From positions 1 through 64,000 of the IMG/VR virus record IMGVR_UViG_3300036770_005287: a stretch of DNA of 64,000 bases, one strand, 5' to 3'. A model generated the notes under the pieces. It was not told where the DNA came from and ran no database searches. It saw only the letters and a list, made by a program, of their open reading frames with translations. This DNA is from a virus. Positions 28,353-33,462 of this stretch are shown here, piece after piece; positions within the stretch are counted from its first letter, which is position 1; every line of letters starts with the position of its first letter. Made by a program: the position numbers and the translations under genes.

Positions 28353-28643
28353 TCAGTAATGGTATCGGCACTGCACAATTGTTAAGCAGCCGGATTCAAC
28401 CTGGTATACCAAGCGATCAGCATGTGTGATACGCCGGGACCAGAAGCCAGACAAGTCGCCTTTGAGCGGTTCTGGCTTGCCCGTACCTGTGAATGGTGTC
28501 CGCAAACACTCTTCAATCAGCCGGTTAATTTTGTTCAGTATTTCAATGTCAAATTGCTGCCAGTGTAAATAATCATCCCAGGCATCATCGGACCAACAAA
28601 TACTTGTATTAGCTACCGCCAGCGCGGCCTTTTTCTTGCTCAT
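28353..28643 (-). CDS. yoeB: YoeB/Txe family toxin
   Basis: 'AWDDYLHWQ...KINRLI...R.PF.GTGKPEPLKGDLSGFWSRRI..ADRLVY...CRYHY'. Confidence 0.92.
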   Translation of the reverse strand: MSKKKAALAVANTSICWSDDAWDDYLHWQQFDIEILNKINRLIEECLRTPFTGTGKPEPLKGDLSGFWSRRITHADRLVYQVESGCLTIVQCRYHY

Positions 28644-28893
28644 GTTGATAAAGCTCTTTGGTTTTAGCTTTACCAGCCCGGACCTGAGCGATAGAACGGC
28701 GCAGTCTTTCCGCATTATGGGCACTGCCCAACAGGTGCAGTGTTTCATTAATGCTGTTGTAGTCATCCAGACTAAGGATAACCACTGGATCTGCAGATTG
28801 GCGCGTAACCATCAGTGGCGCATGGTCGGCGCAAACCTCGTCCATCACTGTCTTTAAGCTGGCTCTAGCATCGCTATAAGACATTTGACGCAT
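28609..28893 (-). CDS. yefM: YefM/Phd family antitoxin
   Basis: 'MSYSDARASLKTVMD.V..DH.P..VTRQ....VVILSLDDYNSINETLHLL'; ATG 28893. Confidence 0.92.
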   Translation of the reverse strand: MRQMSYSDARASLKTVMDEVCADHAPLMVTRQSADPVVILSLDDYNSINETLHLLGSAHNAERLRRSIAQVRAGKAKTKELYQHEQEKGRAGGS

Positions 28894-28921
28894 TTTCAAC
28901 TTCCCCTCTCTCTTATGCGAC

Positions 28922-28945
28922 TCATTGTACAATATCTTGCACAAT
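28922..28945. promoter_or_regulatory. yefM-yoeB autorepression operator
   Basis: TGTACA (28926-31) and TGCACA (28938-43) cores 12 bp apart upstream of yefM, matching the E. coli yefM operator layout. Confidence 0.7.
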
Positions 28946-28954
28946 GCTGGTAGC

Positions 28955-29587
28955 TTAAAATTTAATCCCGTCGATTAATTTATCAACATCACTGAGGAAC
29001 GTGCGCAGATAGTGATCCGTTGACGATAACGACGCCTGGCCTAAGCTATCACGGACCTGGTGAATGGCGGCGCCATTTTTAACCATGGCAAGGGCAAAGG
29101 ATTTGCGGAAACTGTGCGTACTGAGCTGGTAATCAAGGCGCAGATCACAAGCGGCTTTTTTCAGCAGCAAATTCACCATCTGGCAGGTGTAAGGCTGACC
29201 AGGGCGAACATTGGATTCGAAAACCAGCTTTTTGCCGGCGTTGATATGGGCCGCGTCTTCAATGACCGCCCGGCACTGCTCATTTAAGTGCACAGTGAGT
29301 TTTGCCACTGCGCGGGCCGCGGCGTGCGACTTCCCTGCAGCCTGGCTTTTTGAATAAATTTTCTGCTGAATTATGATGACCGAGCTTCTAATCACGCCAT
29401 TGACGATCACGTCTTCAAACTTGATTTGACTGGCGTCACTGTAGCGCAGTCCGGTCAGCGCCATGAATTCGAGCATGAGCGCGATAATCGGATTTGCCTG
29501 GTCAACGTGTTGGATGATTTTACGAAGTTGCCGGCCATCGCGTGCCGGGTATGCCTGCTTTGCTGCCATAAAGCCCCCTTTTGGCAA
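28955..29587 (-). CDS. Short tyrosine recombinase (catalytic domain only, ~205-210 aa)
   Basis: TGLR (R), HSFR (HxxR), LGQ and HY (Tyr nucleophile) motifs. Confidence 0.88.
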   Translation of the reverse strand: MPKGGFMAAKQAYPARDGRQLRKIIQHVDQANPIIALMLEFMALTGLRYSDASQIKFEDVIVNGVIRSSVIIIQQKIYSKSQAAGKSHAAARAVAKLTVHLNEQCRAVIEDAAHINAGKKLVFESNVRPGQPYTCQMVNLLLKKAACDLRLDYQLSTHSFRKSFALAMVKNGAAIHQVRDSLGQASLSSTDHYLRTFLSDVDKLIDGIKF

Positions 29588-29712
29588 AATACTGATTTTT
29601 CGCTGCCATTCATGCCGGTTTGCCCCTCAACAAAACAGCTTGCAGCAATTGATTGTAACACGTTGATTTAGTTACATATTATGCACCGTCACAGGCTTTT
29701 TAAATAGCCTTT

Positions 29713-29744
29713 TCATTTTCAAGAATGCGTATTCTTGAAAATGA
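29713..29744. other. Candidate lox/rox-like recombination site
   Basis: Perfect inverted repeat TCATTTTCAAGAAT-GCGT-ATTCTTGAAAATGA, ~125 bp upstream of the recombinase gene. Confidence 0.6.
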
Positions 29745-29953
29745 TACTGCGTTTTGGTGAAAAGTGCAGGGGAGTAGCCCATATTTTTATTCAGAATTCA
29801 CGTAGCAACGTGCTGAAAAATACATCTATCGGTTAAATCTGTCGTGACATCAGAATTTTCTTCACGGGGATAAACACATTTTTGGAAACCCCAGAAAAAT
29901 CATGTTCATAAATAAGGTAACATTGCTTTCATAATCGCGAAGGGGCTTTTCGG

Positions 29954-30391
29954 ATGAATCCATATAACAGAGTGCTGCATCCAACAAACGGCACTGATAT
30001 TTTCGGTGAAATGCCGGGTATCGATAAGAGCGGCATATTACTACCTCCTGGCCTAATCCATCTGGTTGAAGGTGAACACTACGGCCCTAACAGTGGTTTC
30101 GGTGTTGTGCACATTGTTGCCGAGCACGATCGGCAGATAGCCAGGAAGAACAAAGCGCTTGCGCAAATGAGCTCTCACGACAGGGTGCGTCATTACGTGG
30201 CGCAAATCCTCATCCGCAAAGCACAGATTTTCGTTGAACACGAAAAACCAAAGCGGCCTGTGGTGATCCACACAGCAAAAGGCGGCGTGATTCTGGAACT
30301 TAGAAGAAATGACGGGATCAGCTGGTATTCAGTGGTATCTGCGTACAACCGACAGAACCAACGCGGGGAATTGATGGCAAATTTGCTTTAG
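29954..30391 (+). CDS. BECR/PBECR-fold putative RNase
   Basis: 'GFGVVHIVAEH' N-terminal motif and 'YSVVSAY' C-terminal strand are typical of PBECR-type nucleases. Confidence 0.6.
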   Translation: MNPYNRVLHPTNGTDIFGEMPGIDKSGILLPPGLIHLVEGEHYGPNSGFGVVHIVAEHDRQIARKNKALAQMSSHDRVRHYVAQILIRKAQIFVEHEKPKRPVVIHTAKGGVILELRRNDGISWYSVVSAYNRQNQRGELMANLL

Positions 30392-30396
30392 ACAAC

Positions 30397-30423
30397 AAAA
30401 AACGCGCTCAAGGCGCGTTCTTT
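30397..30423. terminator. Bidirectional intrinsic terminator
   Basis: AAAA-AACGCGC-TCAAG-GCGCGTT-CTTT. Confidence 0.75.
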
Positions 30424-30616
30424 GTGTAGGCGGTAGGCGCAGCGATTTCTTAGCTCTAAGGGTTCGACCTCCAAAACTAAACAATACCCTCCGTGGGGAA
30501 TTACATATTTAGTCTTGCCACTACCAGCAGCTACTCCGGATAAGCTGCCTGCCCATATGCGTACAAGGTACTGACCGGAACCCTTGCCGCAAACGCTCGT
30601 TTTACAGAGCCTACAT
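30397..30616 (-). ncRNA. Predicted ~220-nt structured non-coding RNA convergent with the PBECR gene
   Basis: sigma70 promoter (TTTACT 30649-44, 17 bp, TATTAT 30626-21), closing stem TGTAGGC/GCCTACA, several hairpins and an intrinsic terminator; no ORF >=60 aa. Confidence 0.65.
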
Positions 30617-30739
30617 GCAAATAATAGCCAGATACTACTGTAAAGTAAATAGCAGATGCTAAATCAGCACATTAAGCACGAGTTATAGAACAATAATCGC
30701 TAATAGTTTCAGATCCGGCACTATCACCTAGTTTACTAC

Positions 30740-31423
30740 TCAAAAGTGCAAACTATTCTTTTTGTGGTCCAATCTGGCTTTTAGATAGTGAGCATCGAGC
30801 ATCATTGACCAAACACCCAACAACATCAAGCAAGTGAATGCCGCACTTGTATACTTATGAATACTGTAGAAGAAGGGGGGATGCGACTGGCTAAACCACT
30901 CAGGGATTATCCAGTACGTCACCAACTCAGCAACCAGGCAAAGAATAAAAATCGCTGACATCACCAGAATCATGCAAATTGCAACAACTTGCGGGATCCA
31001 CTTCCTCTGGAACTCAACAGAAAACATCTGTTGTAGCTTTGGATTGCAGTGATAGGTAAATAGGATAAAACTAAGCAGGCAATTAAATAAGAAGTAAAAC
31101 CCGAAGTACGCAACCTGCAGACTAATTTCCCGACCATACAGCAAGTAGCTAACCGGTAATCGAACTGCATATGCCAACAGAATAATAACTAGCGCTGGTA
31201 ATATCTCACGGCGAGATCGGTTCGCTGCTATCACATAGCCCGCTATTCCAATCATATACATGGATTCCATGTATACGGTTGATGGAAAAACCCACCAGAT
31301 GGCAAAGGAAAGAATAAAAGCTGTTATGTGGCCAAACAAAACTAAGTTTGAGCGTGTAAATACAACTAATCGTTCTATTCCCCAATTCATCTGGCGGGAC
31401 ATCCTTATCGCAACTTTAAACAA
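30740..31423 (-). CDS. Polytopic membrane protein (~6 TM)
   Basis: Multiple long hydrophobic segments; AT-rich; start may be a downstream ATG. Confidence 0.75.
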   Translation of the reverse strand: MFKVAIRMSRQMNWGIERLVVFTRSNLVLFGHITAFILSFAIWWVFPSTVYMESMYMIGIAGYVIAANRSRREILPALVIILLAYAVRLPVSYLLYGREISLQVAYFGFYFLFNCLLSFILFTYHCNPKLQQMFSVEFQRKWIPQVVAICMILVMSAIFILCLVAELVTYWIIPEWFSQSHPPFFYSIHKYTSAAFTCLMLLGVWSMMLDAHYLKARLDHKKNSLHF

Positions 31424-31425
31424 AT

Positions 31426-31710
31426 TTATGATTTTGACGGAGGCGTTGGCGGCCAGCCTGGCGGAACATCATCGGCCAAAGCTGTCGCTTCTGGGTCCGT
31501 TGGCGGCCACCCTGGCGGTACGTCGTCAGTTTGCGTTTCACCAGACTCAATTGATTGCAGCGCCTTTGCTTTGTCAGAGATAGTCACTGTGTCAATTGCT
31601 GTTGAACTTAGCGCAGCAGGCTGCTGCTTTGCCAGTTCGGTGTTTTTTTCAGTTGCTGCAGGCTGGTTTACTGCAGCAGTTGCATACGTGGCAGAGCCTT
31701 TAATCTCCAT
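31426..31710 (-). CDS. Small protein/peptide precursor with duplicated DDVPPGWPPT motif
   Basis: ATG 31710 with GAGGA SD, overlapping the end of the XRE gene; the two repeat copies differ only at synonymous sites. Confidence 0.75.
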   Translation of the reverse strand: MEIKGSATYATAAVNQPAATEKNTELAKQQPAALSSTAIDTVTISDKAKALQSIESGETQTDDVPPGWPPTDPEATALADDVPPGWPPTPPSKS

Positions 31711-31966
31711 CGCGCTTTCTTCCTCGGTTTTCTCGATAATGTTTTTCAAACTCTCGGGGGACAAGTAAGCGCCACATTAATCCCCAGCTGGGCCTCGTTG
31801 CCTTTACCCATTCTTTAACAATTGTTAAAGATGGCTCCGCTTCACCGTTTTCCAGCCGGTAAACATATGACCTGTGAATGCCAATTTTGAGCGCCAATTC
31901 CTCGACATTTAAATTGGCCTTTTTCCTCATCGCCCTAAGAATTTCGCCAGTGCTTTCTACTGCCAT
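31700..31966 (-). CDS. XRE-family HTH regulator
   Basis: 'LRAMRKKANLNVEELALKIGIHRSYVYRLENGEAEPS'. Confidence 0.85.
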   Translation of the reverse strand: MAVESTGEILRAMRKKANLNVEELALKIGIHRSYVYRLENGEAEPSLTIVKEWVKATRPSWGLMWRLLVPREFEKHYRENRGRKRDGD

Positions 31967-32167
31967 GACAACTACACCCGCCCGGATCTGTATATTTTTT
32001 TAATTCGCTCAAAAAATGTCCTGATATCAAAGTTTCGTAGGAAAAATATCAGAAAAAAACGCATAATTTGAGCGTTTTGTCGCCTAAATGCGACGTGAAA
32101 AATAATACAGTTGTCGCAGTGATCTGGACAGGCATTTTTAACGATTTTTGCATTAACCAGCTATGTA

Positions 32168-32179
32168 TATCCTAACGTT
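32168..32179 (-). promoter_or_regulatory. AACGTTAGGATA motif
   Basis: Exact copy upstream of the c1-like operon. Confidence 0.7.
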
Positions 32180-32312
32180 AATGACATCAAAATGAATGCC
32201 TGACATGAATAACAGATTTTTACACCCGTAAATTTGATAAATATTTTCATCTTGATTAATAGCGTTATTAATCATTAATAATGTCTGTGCTATAGTTGTT
32301 GCGAGGATTGCA

Positions 32313-32702
32313 GTGAACGAGTTCAAAAACACCCAACAGGAATTATCTACAGTTTTAGGCGCCGAAGTTATTACCGGAGCATTAAGAGACAACCTAATAG
32401 GGTACTCTACGGATAGTGCGCTTCAGATGATAGAAGGGTTGAGACACCAAAGCCTGGAGGAAAACAACCTTCTTTTTGGTGCTTGCCACGTTTTGTTGGA
32501 TTTGTTACCAGCTAAGTTGAGGGACTTAGACGGCATTGAACTTGCCATTGCAGACCTTATCGCTACACACACTGACTGTCTGAGGCAGCGTGTGTTATTG
32601 CTGCAATCAGAGCAGAACAACCTAGGGGGCGCATCTGCTGATGTATCAAAGTTACAACGACATCAAACTTGCGAAGCAATCATGCGAACAGCTTGCTCTT
32701 GA
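32313..32702 (+). CDS. Hypothetical protein upstream of c1-like gene (P1 coi position)
   Basis: GTG start with GAGGA SD; overlaps the c1-like ORF. Confidence 0.5.
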   Translation: MNEFKNTQQELSTVLGAEVITGALRDNLIGYSTDSALQMIEGLRHQSLEENNLLFGACHVLLDLLPAKLRDLDGIELAIADLIATHTDCLRQRVLLLQSEQNNLGGASADVSKLQRHQTCEAIMRTACS

Positions 32703-33462
32703 GCTGCACGCTCGATTTTCAGACCATGTAACATATCGTGAAAAACTACCGGACGGCAGCTATCGCCGTCCTGTGATAGTCCTACGCAACCAAGCAGAGT
32801 TAGATGATGTCATAAAGGTTCGGGATGAAATCACCCGGATCCGTGACCAGGTGCTCGAATCGACGGGCAGCTCTGTCCGCTTTACTGAGCCACGTATCGT
32901 TGAAAACGTTCTGCTGTATAAAGTGTGGGTCAACACTGAGCGCAGCAGCAGTTATAACCAGACTTCACGGCTTGAGATTATCCATAACATTAAACAGCGA
33001 TTAGAGCGGGCCAACCGCAACGCAGATAATGACATTGCTCAAATGACAGCCTTGCTACTGCGTAAAGAACTGAAGTTTTTCGAAGGTGAAACAGAAGAGT
33101 ACTACCGCGCACGGACAATTGGCTTGCCATCTTCTGATGCAGAGTGCCACCTGGCGAACCATGGCCGCGAGAAGATCAAAATATCTGAAGCCGGCTTATT
33201 TATCGTTGGTCCAAATTTTGACATACCCCGCGGCGACTTTCCTGAAGGACGAAAGCCACGCAAACCACGAGCAAGCGTCTATGACGGCCTTGAACAAATT
33301 CAGTACTCAGGTGCAGTCAGTAGCGTGCTGTATCGGGAAAGCGAAGTAATTGCAGCCAAGCGCCGGGCCGGCTTTGATGACGAGAAGCAGGAGCAGATTA
33401 AGAACATGAAAAAATCTGTGTCTCGCCGCAGTCCTGGCGCGCCGCCAGAACACCCGATCTGA
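32641..33462 (+). CDS. c1: P1 C1-like primary repressor
   Basis: 273 aa, convergent with pacB as in P1; motifs RPVIVL, IIH.I, YRAR..G, GLFI, SVYD.LE.I, LYR match recalled P1 C1 motifs (RPVVVL, IIHLI, FRMRVHG, GVFI, SLYDSIEPI, IYR). Confidence 0.7.
   Translation: MYQSYNDIKLAKQSCEQLALELHARFSDHVTYREKLPDGSYRRPVIVLRNQAELDDVIKVRDEITRIRDQVLESTGSSVRFTEPRIVENVLLYKVWVNTERSSSYNQTSRLEIIHNIKQRLERANRNADNDIAQMTALLLRKELKFFEGETEEYYRARTIGLPSSDAECHLANHGREKIKISEAGLFIVGPNFDIPRGDFPEGRKPRKPRASVYDGLEQIQYSGAVSSVLYRESEVIAAKRRAGFDDEKQEQIKNMKKSVSRRSPGAPPEHPI

Follow-up and report, generated by a model that had tools for sequence, protein, structure and literature searches.

An 85-kb phage of the P1/D6-like kind, distantly related to phage P1, has three minus-strand genes in the gap that separates its c1/coi-like genes from its lox/recombinase slot. 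They are best read as the phage's copy of an undescribed two-gene module, together with a small XRE regulator dedicated to it. One module protein would be small, with a leader and a core, and the other its cognate partner, a six-helix protein of the inner membrane. The favoured account, held at a probability of about 40%, predicts that the small protein is an exported peptide precursor, that the membrane protein is its cognate receptor or an immunity protein, and that XRE controls both. The small protein would be the precursor, with its conserved N-terminal part and amphipathic helix acting as a double-glycine-type leader, and the part beyond the hinge, built around a P-x-W-P motif that occurs twice here, would be set free outside the cell through a host exporter. 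The membrane protein would be the specific partner, either a receptor or a self-protection protein, whose variable outward half recognises the core while its conserved cytoplasmic face does a common job, and the XRE protein would control the operon from the divergent control region that it shares. Two new protein families come with the cassette, neither of them represented in Pfam, NCBIfam, PHROGs, PADLOC or the PDB, and no description of the small-protein/membrane-protein module was found in the literature searched.

The window analysed is a 64,000-nucleotide stretch of IMG/VR record IMGVR_UViG_3300036770_005287. The first gene of the operon encodes an XRE-family HTH regulator of 88 aa (31700..31966), the second a disordered protein of 94 aa with a leader-like N-terminal part and two P-x-W-P core units (31426..31710), and the third a membrane protein of about 220 aa with six long helices (30740..31402, start at ATG 31402), all on the minus strand. 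The small ORF runs from ATG 31710 to a stop at 31426 and shares its first 11 nt with the end of the XRE gene. Cassette GC is 0.37-0.48 against about 0.50 in the flanks, and with the gene coordinates these values bear out the sequence-only reading of the trio as tightly coupled, AT-rich and divergent from a c1-like operon. Between the XRE operon and the coi-position/c1-like operon lies a divergent AT-rich control region (31967..32312, no strand assigned, GC 0.37), several blocks of which are kept in locus L002. One of its elements is a candidate operator, the near-perfect palindrome TTATTAATCATTAATAA (32265..32281), which is conserved in L002, matches on both strands and has 3 matches in the window against 0.14 expected. 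Promoter and terminator scans gave nothing above chance, promoter-like sites in 31967..32312 included, and an Rfam scan of 29500-32500 gave no match. Nucleotide searches of phage and plasmid collections with the cassette returned no match, and nor did protein searches with the NCBI-sourced relative P0006.

The divergent operon includes a plus-strand gene (32641..33462), placed after pacB in the same order as in P1/P7, which similarity and synteny with P7 immC identify as a distant homologue of the P1/P7 C1 repressor. The similarity is weak: the 273-aa product aligns over 250 aa with annotated P7 C1.9 at 23% identity (pairwise E 4e-4) and, at an E of 3e-7, with the gene that phage JK004 has in the c1 position, and a database-wide tblastn gave no match. 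The region resembles immC of P1/P7 (c1, coi, imcAB, lox, cra, cre) in its gene order, which runs pacB, c1 homologue, small upstream gene and then a recombinase with a lox-like site. However, P7 has nothing like the cassette between imcAB and lox, whereas the window has three extra genes there, transcribed in the same direction as cra-cre.

Within the small protein, a conserved helix motif, DTVTISDKAKAL (residues 40-51, 31558..31593), is followed by a Ser-Gly hinge (residues 56-57, 31540..31545), a place at which relatives carry GG or GGG in alignment A8, and then by two DDVPPGWPPT units, all on the minus strand. Unit 1 (31498..31527) corresponds in the alignment to the one P-x-W-P core that the relatives have, and unit 2 (31444..31473) is a lineage-specific duplicate that is also present in P0064, a 93%-identical relative. 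The two units had been reported as identical peptides encoded with four synonymous differences, and this is confirmed: 4 of 30 bases differ, every one of them third-position and synonymous, and because about 26% of single changes within the unit are synonymous, a 4/4 outcome has P of about 0.004. TRF does not call the pair because a 24-nt spacer separates the units. The suggestion of selection on the peptide sequence is likewise supported by a soil-metagenome phage contig of about 93% identity, in which the C-terminal 47 aa of the small protein are identical and all five listed base changes in that part are synonymous. The N-terminal half has several substitutions and a one-codon deletion in the same contig. 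Judged by such sequence comparison, these are real genes kept under purifying selection.

The small protein has 36 relatives, every one unnamed, and its family is described by alignments A7 and A8. Family features are an N-terminal M-x-(I/F)-N-A-Q-S, a helix with D-x-V-x-L-S-x-E-A-L, usually a Gly-Gly, and a C-terminal P-x-W-P core. In the alignments DTVTISDKAKAL lines up with the D-x-V-x-L-S-x-E-A-L that all relatives have and with the leader ELVELNxxELxQVSGG found in the Rheinheimera forms. After GG the core is variable, with an invariant Pro and a near-invariant Trp (A7/A8). A copy from Rheinheimera riviphila has three tandem 54-nt units, each GGG-TTLPPWPPQ, with mostly synonymous differences between units. 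Cores are multiplied in two independent lineages, the phage (two units) and R. riviphila (three). The peptide-precursor reading proposed from the phage copy is supported in part, by the leader-plus-core layout and by the independent recurrence of repeated cores in a bacterial homologue. The stated absence of a Sec signal also holds, as no Sec-type hydrophobic segment was found in the small protein (maximum 19-residue Kyte-Doolittle mean 0.46). Its AF2 model is disordered save for a short helix in the ISDKAKAL motif (pLDDT 58.7).

Co-occurrence and co-variation of the peptide and membrane genes had been put forward as a check, with a lack of linkage in other genomes to count against the idea. 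Linkage holds in other genomes. Upstream DNA could be read at 14 loci (the window, L002, L004, L009-L011 and L018-L025), and at every one of them a small ORF stops no more than about 110 nt from the membrane gene; the small-protein profile gives one strong match per genome, always adjoining the membrane gene. XRE orthologues lie upstream of the pair in seven loci (the window, L002, L004, L011, L023, L025 and L024). Meanwhile, seven chromosomal copies have no XRE gene and no phage context and occupy a stable site without mobile-element genes, so the core pair needs neither. At the syntenic chromosomal site, identity is 78-97% for the adjoining SulP gene against 30-54% for the membrane protein in most pairs, with 77% reached only by the pair that shares a core type; membrane-protein type tracks core type, as co-variation would have it. 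On these identities the small-protein and membrane-protein genes form a fast-evolving pair, changing far faster than their neighbours, in bacterial chromosomes as well. Whether it signals, protects or excludes, the pair would be a specificity system, evolving rapidly, at the site of lysogeny control. It offers a clear genetic handle: Rheinheimera relatives have it as a stable chromosomal form, and the phage has it as a form that comes with a dedicated regulator.

Between L010 and L019, counted by eye, 36 of 39 leader residues are identical against about 12 of 29 in the core, a conserved leader joined to a variable core. In 9/10 Rheinheimera-type proteins the leader part matches several GG-leader models at the same residues, although the relatives' matches (to the TIGR01847, TIGR03949, VP1 and BlpC models) are sub-threshold, those to TIGR01847 scoring 12.9-15.0 bits against a cut-off of 15.7. 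Taking the leader geometry as Gly at -2 and Gly, Ala or Ser at -1 after a helix with hydrophobic residues at -4, -7 and -12, it is canonical in L009, L010, L011, L018, L019 and L023, the L002 helix is one residue short, and in L004 and the Rheinheimera multi-core forms GG stands 13-15 residues past the helix, which is non-canonical. The window protein has I(-4) and L(-7) but Ser at -2. In the Rheinheimera relatives the leader looks near-canonical for the double-glycine type, and the D-x-V-x-L-S-x-x-A motif reads better as a helix of this putative leader type than as a FlgM feature. The window protein itself, with Ser-Gly at the hinge, had no match to the GG-leader models, an observation that counts against export.

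The same is true of the exporter survey: PF03412 (C39 exporter) is absent from both complete phage genomes and none adjoins any module copy. C39 ABC exporters are present but unlinked in the three bacterial genomes checked, which says little because half of the control genomes have one. A HlyD-type gene near one chromosomal copy was considered as an exporter link and discarded, being part of an AcrB-type RND pump.

The D-x-V-x-L-S-x-x-A motif had also prompted the idea of a FlgM-like protein exported by the flagellar type III system and acting on sigma-28, flagella or motility, which is now very improbable. The window protein does have weak matches to PF04316 (E 0.068; residues 40-56, profile positions 1-17 of 55) and TIGR03824 (E 0.003; residues 1-63, profile positions 1-64 of 98), the true FlgM of the hosts starts MAINVNQ and has QDSVSLT at similar spacing, and one chromosomal trio lies beside flagellin and fliD genes. 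FlgM and the small protein are alike in that the N-terminal half is disordered and a D-x-V-x-L-(S/T)-x-x-A helix is similarly spaced. However, the scores are far below every cut-off (13.8 bits against 25 and 18.4 against 40.75), the sole FlgM-resembling part is DTVTISDKAKAL, the first helix, and the C-terminus is formed by the P-x-W-P repeat region, the sigma-28-binding C-terminal helices being absent. Furthermore, five relatives scanned for FlgM gave no match, PF04316 in five module-carrying host genomes found genuine FlgM alone, at other loci, and flagellar genes adjoin only one locus among those with mapped flanks. Alignment of A8 to five genuine FlgM proteins with hhalign gave a probability of 1.85% over 17 columns, which argues against homology at the family level. 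Also weighed and set aside were a TonB box (DTVTIS), rhombosortase/GlyGly-CTERM processing, C-mannosylation (W-x-x-W) and UbiA-type Trp prenylation, which seem at odds with the family alignment or with the lack of matching enzyme motifs.

The membrane ORF (30740-31402, minus strand) encodes 220 aa from ATG 31402, although ATG 31390 is also possible; TTG 31423 further upstream is lost in a close relative, and homologues align from residue ~20. Its AF2 model is confident (pLDDT 94.6, pTM 0.88), and the family has 30 representatives among 1.84 billion proteins. Searches of Pfam, NCBIfam, PHROG and PADLOC families and of PDB folds gave no match, and neither PADLOC nor PHROGs matched the small protein. 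Foldseek with the model returned nothing at E 0.001 or better, VIA-align gave generic helical bundles only (Z up to 8.8), which were also all that bore on a Rce1/CPBP-like fold, and the ESM Atlas gave unnamed clusters only. A Pfam scan of 37 family members at E up to 1 found no match, including to PF02517 (CPBP/Abi) and AgrB. In respect of the AgrB-type catalytic pair, His118 is common, Cys119 is replaced in several members and Q138 alone is invariant across A4. No longer, fused forms were found, which is weak evidence. Two candidates proved to be false positives of the membrane profile, L012 being a PnuC transporter and L013 stopping inside the match.

In a topology predicted from the positive-inside rule only, 13 Lys+Arg residues lie inside against 1 outside, and under this prediction conservation is higher in the half that faces the cytoplasm than in the outward one (0.306 vs 0.216, permutation p 0.0008), with the most conserved residues, RRE-x-x-P, IPQV and WSMMLD, on the cytoplasmic side. 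These residues could equally bind an unexported small protein, which counts against the export reading. Such an intracellular pair, a less probable explanation that nevertheless deserves weight, would have the disordered small protein stay in the cell and use its helix and P-x-W-P motifs to bind the membrane protein's conserved cytoplasmic face, whether to inhibit it, as an adaptor or in the manner of an antitoxin, with repeated motifs raising avidity and the membrane protein serving as a lysogen-expressed effector of superinfection exclusion, abortive infection or addiction. It accords with the lack of a signal peptide and of a linked exporter, and with a location adjoining the repressor in a phage-plasmid rich in toxin-antitoxin genes; in other temperate phages rexB or sie genes adjoin repressors. 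An XRE-first operon is common in toxin-antitoxin and defence modules, weak HipB/MqsA-type and PADLOC HTH matches were obtained for this one, and fast evolution fits an arms race as well. However, an intracellular pair leaves unexplained the conserved Gly-Gly, the near-canonical leader in Rheinheimera, the GGG within each repeat unit and the variability of the outward half. No defence-system model matches either protein, and seven copies sit at a stable chromosomal site free of mobile-element genes.

Under the preferred reading of an exported precursor with a membrane partner, one of the closest known arrangements is that of double-glycine-leader loci such as those of the pheromones ComC/BlpC and of class II bacteriocins and microcins, for example the colicin V precursor CvaC with its immunity protein Cvi. 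As in those loci, the precursor is small and lacks a Sec signal, its amphipathic leader is conserved and closes with Gly-Gly, the C-terminal core varies and the next gene downstream encodes a membrane protein. The cassette differs in having no C39 ABC exporter or accessory protein in it or nearby, in a long leader of 40-60 aa with its own conserved N-terminal motif (and Ser-Gly in the window protein), in the family-wide and repeatable P-x-W-P motif of the core and in a partner from a new six-helix family that is neither a histidine kinase nor a known immunity family. A rival reading is a bacteriocin or microcin with immunity, where lysogens would release an antibacterial core and the membrane protein would protect the producer, as a competition or addiction module for the phage-plasmid. 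That version is doubtful. The order of precursor then membrane protein, the GG-type leader, the plasmid-like carrier and the allele-like diversification, in which the membrane protein tracks core type, would all suit it, but the cores, 12-37 aa long, are hydrophilic and Pro-rich, often acidic, and contain neither an amphipathic nor a hydrophobic stretch, the cassette has no exporter, and no CPBP/Abi or other immunity family is matched. P-x-W-P is moreover conserved family-wide, whereas toxins usually vary most. Short hydrophilic Pro-rich cores, unlike pore-forming bacteriocins, count against export more generally.

The regulator passes PF01381 (HTH_3) at 53.2 bits against a 23-bit cut-off (E 3e-14), and five close XREs (window, L002, L004, L023 and L025) have P-S-(L/F)-x-x-(V/A)-(K/R)-x-W-x-x-x-T after the HTH. 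The 88-aa protein consists of the HTH only, and its lack of a ligand-binding domain also counts against the export reading. The sequence-only reading had raised an arbitrium analogue. In the version weighed here, the membrane protein of other lysogens or infected cells would sense the core and free or sequester XRE, which would act on the shared control region and so bias c1/coi expression and the lysis-lysogeny decision. All support for an exported precursor serves this proposal too, as do the divergent arrangement with the coi-position/c1-like operon, the conserved palindrome in the shared control region and the orthologous XRE genes that accompany the pair in seven loci. Arbitrium itself (AimR-AimP-AimX of Bacillus phages) similarly has a phage small-peptide gene and a regulator gene near the lysogeny control region. 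AimP carries a Sec signal, is cut to a hexapeptide and re-imported, and is bound by a large TPR receptor. By contrast, the window cassette has no signal peptide, an 88-aa HTH regulator and a membrane protein as the conserved partner; none of the defining arbitrium parts is present and the cassette falls outside that system. Seven chromosomal copies lack both XRE gene and phage, XRE trios occur at non-phage chromosomal sites too, and an arbitrium-like role is accordingly judged improbable. Equally speculative is a wider communication or kin-recognition system of Gram-negative bacteria and P1-like phage-plasmids, in which one or several P-x-W-P peptides, released from a leader-bearing precursor, would be recognised by the variable outward face of the six-helix receptor and the phage receptor would signal via the mini-XRE to the c1/coi region, an arbitrium analogue made from unrelated parts.

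In Gram-positive bacteria and their phages, peptide signals whose receptor alleles diversify along with them are textbook knowledge; nothing comparable was found described for Gammaproteobacteria or P1-like phage-plasmids in the literature searched. In comQXP of Bacillus and agrBDCA of staphylococci, precursor and membrane partner diverge together into allele classes while the flanking genes are conserved, and the active part of ComX is C-terminal and centred on a Trp. The module resembles these pherotype loci in the contrast between a neighbour at 78-97% identity and a membrane protein at 30-54% that tracks core type. It differs in having no prenyltransferase, AgrB-type peptidase or sensor kinase, and its His-Cys pair is not conserved. 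Whereas those loci are Gram-positive, the hosts of the module are Gammaproteobacteria, and one version is carried on a phage-plasmid.

Three minus-strand genes make up the cassette: an XRE regulator (31700-31966; 88 aa, HTH_3 E 3e-14), a 94-aa small protein (31426-31710) whose ATG overlaps the XRE stop by 11 nt, and a membrane protein of ~220 aa (30740-31402). The public-database call for the membrane protein, P0001, begins at Met45 (176 aa) and is probably truncated; homologues and the AF2 model place the first transmembrane helix upstream of Met45. Since homologues align from ~residue 20 and a close relative lacks the TTG at 31423, ATG 31402 or 31390 is the likely start. The small and membrane proteins are tentatively read (probability about 0.4) as a precursor and its cognate membrane partner, carried by the window phage between immC and lox as an accessory cassette that has a dedicated XRE regulator. 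This reading draws on the strict pairing of the two genes, the leader/core layout and recurrent core multiplication, on a core that is under purifying selection at short range and replaced in allele-like fashion at long range, and on a membrane protein that tracks core type and varies in its outward half. Both families are unannotated and a full-text literature search found no paper on either. A leader peptide paired with its own membrane protein is a familiar kind of arrangement; novelty lies in the family of the partner, in the P-x-W-P core, in hosts among the Gammaproteobacteria and in carriage by a phage-plasmid.

The membrane-protein family is small, with 10 matches among 5.8 billion clustered proteins and 30 representatives among 1.84 billion proteins; all relatives are ~200 aa, none has a name or Pfam domain, and a search for longer fused forms found none. 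Genomic context came from the second complete phage (L002, 84 kb), a metagenome contig (L004) and whole-genome searches seeded with the Rheinheimera riviphila match, and the membrane protein occurred in 1/400 genomes sampled from the class, as 3 strong matches in 401 from the order and in 10/301 from the taxonomic family. The linkage expected from the sequence-only reading recurs in these genomes: at all 14 loci with readable upstream DNA an ORF of 46-105 aa ends at most ~110 nt from the membrane gene, and an XRE gene precedes the pair at seven (window, L002, L004, L011, L023, L025 and the distant L024). A small-protein profile found exactly one strong site per genome, always adjoining the membrane gene. 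The XRE proteins of the window, L002, L004, L023 and L025 have a common motif after the HTH and are therefore orthologues rather than chance neighbours. The seven copies without an XRE gene share a single syntenic position in the chromosome, flanked by a thrA-like gene on one side and a SulP transporter on the other.

No hydrophobic segment was found in the window small protein, in agreement with the proposed lack of a Sec signal, and the protein is predicted to be disordered except for a short helix in the ISDKAKAL motif. Family alignments (A7 and A8) divide the small proteins into four parts. An N-terminal motif, M-x-(I/F)-N-A-Q-S, is followed by a low-complexity stretch that varies among members, then by a helix, D-x-V-x-L-S-x-E-A-L-A-L, most often closed by Gly-Gly, and finally by a C-terminal core with invariant Pro and near-invariant Trp (PPGWPPT, PPWPT, PAWPP, WPKWPT, WPTWPT, RPWPPT, PIWIKN, DWWVKK). 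The Rheinheimera form of the helix, ELVELNxxELxQVSGG, is a near-canonical version of the textbook double-glycine leader L-S-x-x-E-L-x-x-I-x-G-G, and 9/10 Rheinheimera-type proteins match, over the same residues and just below cut-offs, the leader parts of several independent models (bacteriocin_sig, lactobin/cerein, ATP-grasp RiPP target, and the pheromones VP1 and BlpC). The phage leaders are degenerate forms: LSPEALALSGG in L002 and, differing from the double-glycine pattern with Ser at -2, ISDKAKALQSIESG in the window. Between two species with 97% identical SulP, the leader is identical at 36/39 positions and the core at ~12/29 (counted by eye).

Both DDVPPGWPPT units reported for the window are present (31498-31527 and 31444-31473); unit 1 aligns with the single core of all relatives and unit 2 is extra. 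Four base differences separate the two copies, each at a third codon position and silent; since a single change in the unit is silent in ~26% of cases, 4 of 4 has P ~0.004. The R. riviphila assembly breaks inside the small gene: a second membrane-gene copy lies at a contig end and its upstream part on two tiny contigs (L029, G001:C5; L030, G001:C76), one with a single 54-nt unit and the other with three in tandem (copy number as assembled). This unit encodes TPNSGGG-TTLPPWPPQ(G/D)N, with the glycines inside it, and unit-to-unit differences are mostly synonymous. Given three units in R. riviphila and two in the window, core multiplication was independent in the bacterium and the phage lineage, and the repeated cores would fit a multi-core precursor or a multivalent ligand.

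Selection on the repeat peptide, first proposed from the unit differences, is further upheld by an 84,929 bp soil-metagenome contig with the cassette at ~93% identity. Its small protein, P0064, differs by several substitutions and the loss of one codon within the N-terminal 47 residues; the C-terminal 47 are identical, with 5/5 listed base changes synonymous, and constraint in the small protein is thus tightest in the repeat-bearing half. In the membrane gene 19/28 listed changes are synonymous, and the overall pattern indicates that all three reading frames are real. The same relative has unrelated sequence (43 and 106 letters) in place of non-coding 30614-30752, downstream of the membrane gene, and 32142-32250, within the divergent control region; the three genes between are retained.

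The membrane protein co-varies with the peptide, as anticipated. At the syntenic site, identity between species is 78-97% for the SulP neighbour and 30-54% for the membrane protein; the sole exception, at 77%, is a pair whose peptides both carry a ...GPIWIKN core, whereas a pair with closer SulP (97%) and unlike cores reaches 54%. Pherotype and bacteriocin-immunity loci show the same fast divergence of a pair against a conserved neighbour. A bacteriocin with its immunity protein is ranked lower, as unlikely, because the cores are short, hydrophilic and Pro-rich; judged by composition they look more like a signal than a pore-forming toxin. The AF2 model (37 sequences; pLDDT 94.6, pTM 0.88) has six long helices; one side carries 13 Lys+Arg and the opposite side a single one, hence a predicted N-in, C-in topology. 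The best-conserved residues (R65-E66, P69; I136-P137-Q138-V139; W198-S-M-M-L-D) fall at the predicted cytoplasmic interface; a Glu within helix 5 and a PFFY stretch where helix 6 ends on the outer side are also conserved, and conservation is 0.306 in the cytoplasm-facing half vs 0.216 in the outward half (permutation p 0.0008). Fold and family database searches gave no match, and the family alignment has no invariant Cys, Ser or His suggesting a protease.

It is the leader-like layout that suggests export of the small protein. Neither complete phage encodes a C39 peptidase domain, and C39 exporters in the three bacterial genomes checked are unlinked to the pair and also occur in half of control genomes. 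An HlyD-type gene near one copy was rejected as exporter, being part of an RND pump. The main rival, an intracellular pair in which the disordered protein binds the conserved cytoplasmic face of a membrane effector expressed in the lysogen, accounts for the absent exporter but leaves both the Gly-Gly and the variable outward half without explanation, and is considered doubtful. The suggested FlgM reading is not supported. The window protein matches Pfam FlgM (E 0.068, 17/55 positions) and TIGR03824 (E 0.003, positions 1-64 of 98) far below cut-off, FlgM models match none of five scanned relatives, and profile-profile comparison gives 1.85% probability over 17 columns. Five module-carrying genomes each have a genuine FlgM elsewhere (57-68 bits), and the Pfam model does not pick up their module's small protein. 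Family membership was rejected, the resemblance being a short motif and a similar disordered layout. Among loci with mapped flanks, flagellar genes adjoin one: the chromosomal trio L031 (G815:C1:224000-240000) is divergent from two flagellin genes and fliD, and a second XRE gene and an RND efflux pump come after it.

The virus record is complete (85,032 bp, terminal repeats), with a large terminase ~50% identical to PacB of D6 and P1. Gene order near the cassette is that of P7 immC: after pacB come an additional SspA-like gene, a 273-aa protein that faces pacB, a small upstream gene and, at a greater distance, a short tyrosine recombinase. This 273-aa protein is a distant C1 homologue (23% identity to annotated P7 C1.9 across 250 aa, pairwise E 4e-4; pairwise E 3e-7 to the phage JK004 gene that occupies the c1 position), a likeness missed by database-wide tblastn, and with the immC-like order this makes it fair to place the cassette beside the c1 immunity region. 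A connection with c1/coi of the arbitrium kind is unsupported and unlikely. Half of the known copies work without an XRE gene or any phage. The P7 stretch between imcAB and lox holds nothing cassette-like. A near-perfect palindrome, TTATTAATCATTAATAA (32265-32281), lies ~32 nt upstream of the GTG of a 129-aa gene in the coi position. It is kept in L002 and could be an operator bound by C1 or by the XRE protein.

Between the cassette and the short tyrosine recombinase (204-210 aa), toxin-antitoxin pairs differ: YefM/YoeB (Pfam) in the window (28353-29587), and in L002 (7004-8206) a MazEF-like pair. Past its recombinase L002 also has a HicAB-like pair; both L002 pairs are read from sequence and not from family models. 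A 145-aa ORF (29954-30391), convergent with the cassette, has no match in Pfam, PHROG or PADLOC. The distant L024 (G983:C59) carries two nearly identical membrane genes in tandem, one after a 105-aa small protein ending GGGGVKRPPP and the other after the XRE gene, and adjoins a stretch whose translation repeats FQSTHPRRVR / VSIHAPAKGAT and which looks like a CRISPR-type repeat array.
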